The notes: generated from the letters alone by a model not told the origin. Numbered from the stretch's first letter, positions 13,690 through 14,887 are shown. The stretch: DNA of 64,000 nucleotides from Escherichia coli (GCF_001677475.2 NZ_CP015229.1); one strand, 5' to 3'. A program made the numbers and translations.

Positions 13690-14716
13690 TGGCAAAAGTG
13701 GCTGACGGGATCCGCTACGCCGAACGTGTTGTTGCAGGAGAAATTGTTGCTGGCGAATTTGTCCGCCTGGCCTGCCAGCGTTTTCTTGATGATCTGAAGT
13801 ACGGCGAAGAGCGGGGGATTTATTTCAGTGAACCCCGTGCGCAGCACATCCTGAATTTCTACAAATTTGTGCCTCATGTAAAAGGGGCGCTGGCAGGCCA
13901 GCCCATTGAGTTGATGGACTGGCATGTATTTATTCTCATTAATATTTTTGGTTTTGTCATTCCGCTGGTCAATGAAGAGACCGGGGAAGTTGTCATGCGC
14001 AGCGATGGCAGTGGACGTCCGGTGATGGTGCGCCGGTTCCGGACGGCGTACAACGAAGTCGCTCGTAAAAACGCAAAATCAACTCTGTCATCGGGTATCG
14101 GCCTGTATATGACGGGGGCAGATGGTGAAGGCGGAGCTGAGGTGTATTCAGCCGCAACCACGCGTGACCAGGCCAGAATCGTGTTTGAAGACGCCAAAAA
14201 TATGGTCAGAAAAGCCCGGTCGACACTCGGGCGGTTGTTTGATTTCAACAAGCTGGCGATTTACCAGGAGCAGAGCGCATCAAAATTTGAACCGCTTTCT
14301 TCGGATGCAAACAACCTAGACGGTCTGAACATCCACTGCGCCATTATTGATGAGCTGCATGCACATAAAACCCGCGACGTGTGGGACGTTCTGGAAACGG
14401 CAACCGGTGCCCGTCTGCAGTCCCTGTTATTTGGTATCACCACGGCGGGCTTTAACAAGGAAGGGATTTGTTACGAGCAACGCGATTACGCCATCAAGGT
14501 ATTGCGAGGCTATAACAGCGACGTGGAGGGCGCGGTAAAAGACGACTCCTACTTTGCGATTATTTACACGCTCGATGAGGGAGATGATCCGTTTGATGAA
14601 ACGGTCTGGCAGAAAGCGAATCCGGGCCTGGGCATCTGTAAACGCTGGGATGATCTGCGTCGTCTGGCGAAAAAAGCGAAGGAGCAGGTCTCGGCGCGGG
14701 TGAATTTTTTCACGAA
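13689..14716 (+). pseudogene. Terminase large subunit, N-terminal (ATPase) fragment, interrupted by island insertion
   Basis: Homology to intact island TerL (VCPHVKGA..PIEL, RKNAKST Walker-A-like) stops near 14716; ORF then runs into island DNA and ends at 14882. Confidence 0.8.
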
Positions 14717-14887
14717 GAAAGTAACATCACGCCGTAACAACAGTGCAGTCTGTCCTGATTTTTTTAGTAACCAAATGAAAGAAAAAGATTTTTTCTTGTT
14801 CGTCGTTTTTGTTTTTTCTGGATGGTTCTGGCTGTTTTCATCATTTGTGTATTGCACTGTGTATTGCAAAAACGGGTTATAAATCAC

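Follow-up and report, generated by a model that had tools for sequence, protein, structure and literature searches.

A probable helper-embedded PICI with capsid-forming gene content in the large terminase gene of an Escherichia coli prophage

How does a prophage come to carry its large terminase gene in two pieces, with a 15-kb insert that brings a second, intact terL between them? The question is raised by the window, i.e., the whole 64-kb stretch of Escherichia coli DNA that was analysed. The answer that is favoured here (at a probability of about 0.93) is that the segment 14717-30125 is an HE-PICI of the type A:Terminase_1:246, which was inserted by its own tyrosine integrase into codons 341-343 of the terL gene of a helper that, to judge from its genes, is an HK97-like prophage of the HNH/TerS/TerL type. 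HE-PICIs are helper-embedded PICIs (Tommasini, Mageeney and Williams, 2023, NAR Genom Bioinform 5:lqad036; PMC10111431). The element type, its site, the variants of the 7-bp core, the arm motif and the annotation problem posed by terminase/int fusions are already published (Tommasini, Mageeney and Williams, 2023; PMC10111431). The finding brings no new biology and its value is practical, for annotation: a prophage 'terL pseudogene' pair with a 15-kb insert is to be seen as a reversible interruption by a satellite and not as decay, and the tools for prophage completeness and for satellite finding should handle helper and satellite separately.

The interrupted terL gene and its att cores

The two parts of the helper gene and the sequence repeated at their inner ends are as follows.

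13689..14716 (+), N-terminal fragment of helper terL, codons 1-343 including the attL core; from the ORF, the in-frame join and Pfam TerL_ATPase
14710..14716 (+), attL core TCACGAA, presumed 7-bp overlap region; from the sequence and the entry 'tcacgaa' in the PMC10111431 supplement
30119..30125 (+), attR core TCACGAA; from the sequence
30126..30855 (+), C-terminal fragment of helper terL, codons 344-585; TerL_nuclease, joins the N-terminal fragment

The core TCACGAA is preceded by T at the left junction and by C at the right one, and the similarity between the junctions reaches further leftward as AAT[T/A]TT[T/C]TCACGAA, with 12 of the 14 bases shared. The initial annotation had described this as an imperfect att repeat, (T/C)TCACGAA, at both ends of the island, and both strings are present as it quoted them. 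The 7-mer alone is not beyond chance: TCACGAA occurs in the window seven times on the + strand and four times on the - strand, with about four per strand expected. The repeat owes its significance to its position, because seven bases of the intact gene are found twice; the identity to uninterrupted terL breaks off exactly at the left core and restarts exactly at the right core, and the prior chance of such a positional match is 4^-7, i.e., about 6e-5.

When 13689-14716 is joined in silico to 30126-30855, a frame of 1758 nt is obtained that encodes a 585-aa TerL, reads ...ARVNFFTKHMNVWVTAES... / ...VNFFTKHMNVWV... over the junction and contains the Pfam domains TerL_ATPase (residues 112-268) and TerL_nuclease (residues 283-563). 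It had been proposed earlier that joining the halves would give a protein alignable to the TerL of the island, and the 585-aa product does align with it, at ...VEMLTKRFNIWCQ..., with 32% identity overall. Removal of the island with one core copy left behind yields an intact TerL, so that the interruption is precise and precisely reversible in silico. The insertion point corresponds to codons 341-343 (F-T-K) and the island supplies no replacement end for the gene. On the TerL_nuclease model the site maps near position 60; position 246 refers to the Pfam model Terminase_1 as it was before being split. The ORF 13689-14882 is TerL-like as far as the left core and consists of unrelated island sequence beyond it, and in homologous loci the C-terminal part of terL is annotated as a TerL pseudogene without N-terminus.

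The same site can be seen empty in other genomes. A search with the rebuilt 608-nt junction found it without interruption in 905 of the 5426 complete E. coli genomes and also in 11 phage records, including phages Evi, phi467 and PhiR49_2, and in ATCC 43886 and WAT an intact terL of 1758 nt (585 aa) is annotated at the homologous locus, with a P27-family terS on one side and the portal gene on the other. Uninterrupted TerL genes do have a sequence matching the core at this position, in three variants. The exact 41-mer of the empty site with TCACGAA was found by megablast in 60 genomes and also in loci L009 and L010; TCACCAA was found in four genomes by 41-mer megablast (three of them exact) and also in locus L003; and TTACCAA is present as an exact 41-mer in locus L008. 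The zero that megablast returned for the TTACCAA 41-mer was not used as a count, since its T7 run was most likely masked by the low-complexity filter; as the case of L008 illustrates, this filter can silently drop short T-rich queries of att sites.

Occupied sites were searched with a 15.9-kb segment including both flanks, and a related island between two terL halves was found in at least 34 complete E. coli records; among the matches listed, the best match to the island in complete E. coli reaches 81% coverage and 95.7% identity. No match to the int region of the island was obtained in 50,697 phage records. Six occupied loci were examined besides the window (2014C-3075, 042, UMNF18, ETEC4090, strain 10 and O177:H21), and in all six the island is placed at the identical terL codon, with cognate cores on each side and unrelated cores in none. 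The attL core equals the attR core in seven of the seven occupied loci, with TCACGAA as the core of the window and of 2014C-3075 and TTACCAA as that of the remaining five, and both of these cores are also found as empty attB. The differences in the core between genomes are synonymous and fall on the third positions of TTY-ACN-AAR (F-T-K).

Gene content of the island and its published relatives

The island as a whole and the components that were assigned to its integration are listed below.

14717..30125 (+), island, probable HE-PICI with cf-PICI gene content; 15,409 bp, one core copy counted
14848..14867 (+), doubled motif TGTATTGCACTGTGTATTGC, P' arm copy, candidate arm-type site for Int (or AlpA); from the sequence
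14888..16111 (+), int, tyrosine integrase of 407 aa; Pfam Arm-DNA-bind_3 and Phage_integrase
16077..16310 (+), alpA, excisionase / transcriptional regulator; Pfam Phage_AlpA (E = 2.4e-9), phrog_2790
16344..16652 (+), second AlpA-like helix-turn-helix gene; phrog_2790 (E = 1.5e-34)
30024..30043 (+), doubled motif TGTATTGCGCTGTGTATTGC, P arm copy; from the sequence

The catalytic signature of Int is intact (R, H-x-x-R, H and Y are all present), and the protein matches the NCBIfam PRK09692 integrase domain below the curated cut-off. Compared with the Ints of the six islands at the same site it shows 99.0-99.8% identity, the Int from the island in E. coli 042 being 99.0% identical. The doubled TGTATTGC motif lies at -98..-79 from the core centre on the attR side and at +135..+154 on the attL side, and the offsets in the six other loci are the same within 1 nt. 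A doubled motif specific to HE-PICIs, tgTGTATTGCantgTGTATTGCa, is placed 81±2 bp upstream and 132±2 bp downstream of the attP centre in PMC10111431; the positions in the window agree with this spacing to a few bp, the published reference points being undefined in that text.

The remaining genes that could be assigned are these.

16707..17303 (+), Bro-N / anti-repressor-like gene; phrog_2593, BRO-N annotation in homologous islands
18652..18739 (+), C4 antisense RNA, immunity RNA of P1/P4 type; Rfam RF01695, 72.3 bits against a gathering score of 45
19631..19930 (+), gene before the RepA-like helicase; DUF4222 annotation in homologous islands
19927..21336 (+), RepA-like helicase, replication zone; phrog_2850 and phrog_906, 'helicase RepA family' in locus L001
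21787..22212 (+), single-stranded DNA-binding protein; TIGR00621, above cut-off
23609..24754 (+), major capsid protein of the island, HK97 type; TIGR01554, 293.8 bits
24588..25364 as ORF, real start probably near 24804 (+), prohead protease of the island; phrog_80, homologues of 561 nt
25276..26580 as ORF, real start probably near 25366 (+), portal of the island; TIGR01537, 251 bits
26492..26872 (+), head-tail adaptor (Ad1) of the island; phrog_40
26872..27312 (+), HNH endonuclease of the island, packaging accessory; phrog_144
27460..27957 as ORF, real start probably near 27601 (+), small terminase of the island, P27 family; TIGR01558
27941..29602 (+), large terminase of the island, intact, 553 aa; phrog_9, 32% identical to helper TerL

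A gene for a PerC-like activator is also present among the island genes, listed after the SSB. Ad1 is the only connector gene of the window island, and some relatives add a head-closure gene. When 26 island ORFs were scanned against PHROGs or NCBIfam, no match to a tail or lysis family was obtained, and the RefSeq annotation of six homologous islands likewise contains no tail or lysis genes.

Several minor features accompany these genes. The C4 RNA sits in the Bro zone of the island, and in related islands the annotation shows an Icd-like gene downstream; a C4-type RNA immunity module is noted for some HE-PICI members in PMC10111431. Part of the Bro zone (17300-18650, about 1.3 kb) is devoid of a convincing plus-strand gene, the 323-aa ORF 17533-18504 looking like a low-quality translation; small minus-strand ORFs are found where related islands carry genes of the YlcI/YnfO type, together with a strong minus-strand terminator-like hairpin (17469-17496). 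The ORF 22841-23314 (-; 157 aa), located between the replication and head modules, is the sole sizeable minus-strand ORF of the island and adjoins a bidirectional terminator-like hairpin at 22810-22835. It gave no match in Pfam, PHROG or PADLOC, a hypothetical gene of equal length, strand and position is annotated in UMNF18, and it may be an accessory or cargo gene. In the terL of the island, the codons that correspond to the att site (L-T-K; 28861-28867) read TCACCAA, a 6/7 match to the att core and the same as the rare empty-site variant in ATCC 43886; self-integration into this gene is unlikely because the flanks are unrelated.

The family to which the island most probably belongs can be recognized by its site, its integrase and its orientation. 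Site group A_Terminase_1_246 is listed for E. coli and E. albertii in PMC10111431 Supplementary File 1, where the att identity is given as 'ttaccaa', 'tcacgaa' or, once, 'tcacaaa'. The same source lists the island of E. coli 042 as Eco33.15.A_Terminase_1_246, FN554766.1/2250958-2235714, with 15,245 bp, and the length measured here is also 15,245 bp. Over their printed length the attL and attR of the site group match the window junctions with few single-base differences, and in the window the core 'tcacgaa' occupies the F-T-K codons of a TerL of HK97 type. The island lies inside a late gene of a prophage that is disrupted without replacement sequence, and its removal restores the 585-aa TerL; int, alpA and the replication gene are all on the + strand, as are almost all island genes, and are co-oriented with helper terS and the interrupted terL. 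Its Int belongs to the site-specific subclade, judged by the pairwise identity of 99.0-99.8%, and the doubled motif tgTGTATTGCantgTGTATTGCa flanks the attP centre in two co-oriented copies. Every defining feature of the HE-PICI family that can be tested in a sequence was thus found.

Compared with HE-PICI A:Terminase_1:246, the window island has the same target codon, core, flanks and motif spacing, and it shares with HE-PICIs the order of zones (Integration, Bro, Replication, Late) and the co-orientation with the late operon. It is a new mosaic copy of the site group and has a RepA-type helicase, whereas most relatives have a DUF927 primase. It differs from 11capE, the HE-PICI that was studied experimentally, in that 11capE is located in a capsid gene of lambda type, lacks terS and presumably uses the cos packaging of its helper, whereas the window island brings packaging genes of its own. 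For 11capE, excision of the composite, replication of the composite and then excision of the satellite were observed, according to PMC10111431.

Judged by its genes, the island is a capsid-forming PICI (cf-PICI) as well. The genes for capsid, protease, portal, connector, HNH, TerS and TerL follow in this order after int, alpA and the replication genes, and tail and lysis genes are absent among the scanned island ORFs. The prototype of cf-PICIs is EcCIEDL933 (Alqurainy et al., preprint 10.1101/2022.09.08.507074), and the definition used by SatelliteFinder is given in PMC10085698. The gene set and order of the window island agree with those described for proteobacterial cf-PICIs (10.1101/2022.09.08.507074), and the helper is of the type that cf-PICIs exploit, namely an HNH-dependent HK97-like cos phage; the window island differs from them by lying inside helper terL. 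That the A_Terminase_1_246 HE-PICIs are capsid-forming PICIs, as their gene content indicates, is an apparently unpublished angle: 'cfPICI' is absent from the main text of PMC10111431, and both labels were not found on the same elements in the literature examined. Satellites inside prophages are mentioned in PMC10085698 only as an unsolved problem of detection. A full cf-PICI head and packaging module in these HE-PICIs links two literatures in which overlapping elements are named separately.

The helper prophage and the competing explanations

The helper prophage encodes an O-like replication initiator, a Q antiterminator, two tRNAs, HNH, TerS, the split TerL, portal, protease, capsid, tape measure and J, and family matches were obtained for its Q, portal, tape-measure and J genes, but not for the lysis and terminal tail-fibre genes. 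The tRNA genes, tRNA-Met(CAT) at 10380-10455 and tRNA-Arg(TCT) at 10555-10631, are situated between the Q gene (8258-9079) and the lysis region. The HK97-type capsid gene of the helper is itself split into fragments (32933-33685 and 36102-36572) by a 2412-bp element of the IS21 family at 33686-36097, which carries istA (33780-35279) and istB (35276-36031), is bounded by 14-bp terminal inverted repeats (12/14 matching) and is flanked by a 4-bp target duplication, CCGT. In-silico removal of this element gives a capsid protein of 407 aa, to which the capsid protein of the island is only 35% identical. To judge from the disrupted gene, the helper probably cannot make heads of its own, and the prophage, in which terL is interrupted as well, may act here solely as a module for tails, lysis and induction that serves a capsid-forming satellite. 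The end of the prophage adjoins a tRNA-Ser(TGA) gene beside hyaABC (window 52400-56400). Among 5426 complete E. coli genomes none is more than 98.1% identical to the host flank, and by this measure the source strain may belong to a somewhat divergent lineage.

With the true insertion sequence of the helper at hand, it can be asked whether the 7-bp repeat of the island is likewise a target-site duplication, left by an insertion of transposase type. Such a duplication would also give flanks that are identical within a genome and variable between genomes, as they are here. Nevertheless, no transposase was found among the island ORFs tested, the insertion codon is the same in every genome examined, and the island sequence to the left of the attR core resembles terL to the left of the attL core, which is the pattern of core-type sites; the IS21-family element, in contrast, shows the expected terminal inverted repeats and 4-bp duplication. 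At an unrelated locus, an off-target representative of the site group still has 'ttaccaa' at its right end (PMC10111431 supplement), so the core travels with the island and belongs to it rather than to a duplicated target. Transposition with a 7-bp duplication was rejected on the absence of a transposase, the invariant site and this retention of the core, and we consider it very improbable. A rearrangement, whether by homologous recombination between terL genes or by a chimeric assembly, could be imagined where two terL genes lie in the same orientation 13 kb apart. Yet the two TerLs share only 32% identity, little beyond the 6/7 core is common to their DNA at the homologous codons, and the junctions are exact to the base and join in frame. 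Independent complete genomes, whose hosts and countries of origin differ, show these same junctions again, and because of this recurrence both rearrangement and misassembly are refuted; the probability left to them is close to nil. The initial annotation had put forward site-specific integration by the adjacent integrase rather than a rearrangement, and this view is supported by the junctions, the invariant codon, the cognate cores and the intact Int; no observation made here weighs against it.

It is a different matter whether the composite is still active. The island may have entered by site-specific integration and be a fossil here, the att repeats being scars of a composite that is now inactive, which we regard as unlikely and yet worth serious consideration. 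The capsid gene split by the 2.4-kb IS21-family element may point to a composite that is partly decayed, many helpers of HE-PICIs look truncated according to PMC10111431, and frameshifted genes occur in some related islands, e.g., that of UMNF18. In the window, however, int, alpA, the att cores, the doubled motifs and all head and packaging ORFs of the island are intact, and the family matches of helper Q, portal, tape measure and J also argue against decay. Moreover, an island that forms its own capsids has no need of the capsid gene of the helper.

Excision model and the terL-int reading frame

If the island is an HE-PICI that can still move, its recombination can be pictured after the att sites of lambda/P4 type, with which it shares the 7-bp identity block, an N-terminal arm-binding domain of Int and repeated arm motifs on both arms of attP; the arm motif here differs in being a doubled octamer specific to HE-PICIs, a putative binding site. 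For the heterobivalent tyrosine integrases of lambda/P4 type the overlap must match between attP and attB. By analogy with these enzymes and with the account in PMC10111431, the 7 bp would be the overlap of strand exchange in which identity of attP and attB is required, and the cleavage positions would lie within or around it. The doubled motifs may be arm-type sites for the arm-binding domain of Int or for AlpA. The predicted attP junction is ...GAAATATTC-TCACGAA-GAAAGTAAC..., and the restored terL junction would read ...GAATTTTT-TCACGAA-ACACATG....

The proposed course of events starts with induction of the prophage, upon which late transcription antiterminated by Q would proceed via terS and the N-terminal fragment of terL into int and alpA. 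Terminator-like hairpins on the plus strand are found 3' of alpA and 3' of the second helix-turn-helix gene, and read-through of these would therefore need the antiterminator of the helper. Int and AlpA would then excise the island and helper terL would be rebuilt, a form of 'regulated gene integrity' that serves the satellite. Equipped with head and packaging genes of its own, the island would need from the helper only tails, lysis and the induction signal, and it would build and fill its own heads. Regulated gene integrity, or active lysogeny, is exemplified by Listeria phi10403S in comK and by the Bacillus skin element in sigK, in which an element likewise splits a gene without replacement and precise excision restores it; in contrast to these cases, the interrupted gene is here part of a prophage, and it is presumably the satellite and not the cell that benefits from the timing. 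The concept is discussed in connection with HE-PICIs in PMC10111431.

The left end of the island raises one further question, namely whether Int synthesis is tied in cis to translation of the interrupted terL and not just to its transcription. In the stretch 14709-14890, the frame of the N-terminal fragment contains 57 open codons counted from F341, of which the island encodes 54, and its stop codon TAA (14880-14882) precedes the int ATG at 14888 by 5 nt; this arrangement is seen in five of the seven loci, the window included. In the other two, 042 (L002 2710-2892) and O177:H21 (L007 1710-1892), the T-run that corresponds to window 14789-14794 is longer by 1-2 T, which results in an in-frame fusion of the TerL N-fragment to Int, and over-long integrases are annotated by RefSeq at the fused TerL::Int loci. 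The terminase/int fusion is flagged as an annotation problem in the PMC10111431 supplement.

When the 171-nt spacer was shuffled by mononucleotides, about 5% of the shuffles had at least one open frame, roughly 2% per given frame, so that the open terL frame is at most suggestive. Conservation of the frame is uninformative because the E. coli copies all hardly differ from one another. Ana29, a divergent representative of the site group, has a stop 20 codons into the island (in the published attL) and lacks the open frame. Translational coupling of int to terL is judged improbable; it constitutes a second, apparently unpublished and tentative angle. If the frame is functional, coupling could proceed by termination-reinitiation or by phase variation through the length of the T-tract, and excision of the satellite would be licensed only after ribosomes have translated the late mRNA of the helper. 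A programmed -1 frameshift from the terL into the int frame at the heptamer T_TTT_TTC (14789-14795) was rejected for want of support: the 100 nt downstream of the slippery sequence fold no better than shuffles (z = +0.71).

A related peculiarity concerns the protein families themselves. Residues 275-406 of Int match positions 690-811 of the 812-position PHROG TerL profile phrog_9 (E = 5e-25), likely because ORFs of TerL::Int fusions were taken into that family, and the match is a trap for automated annotation.
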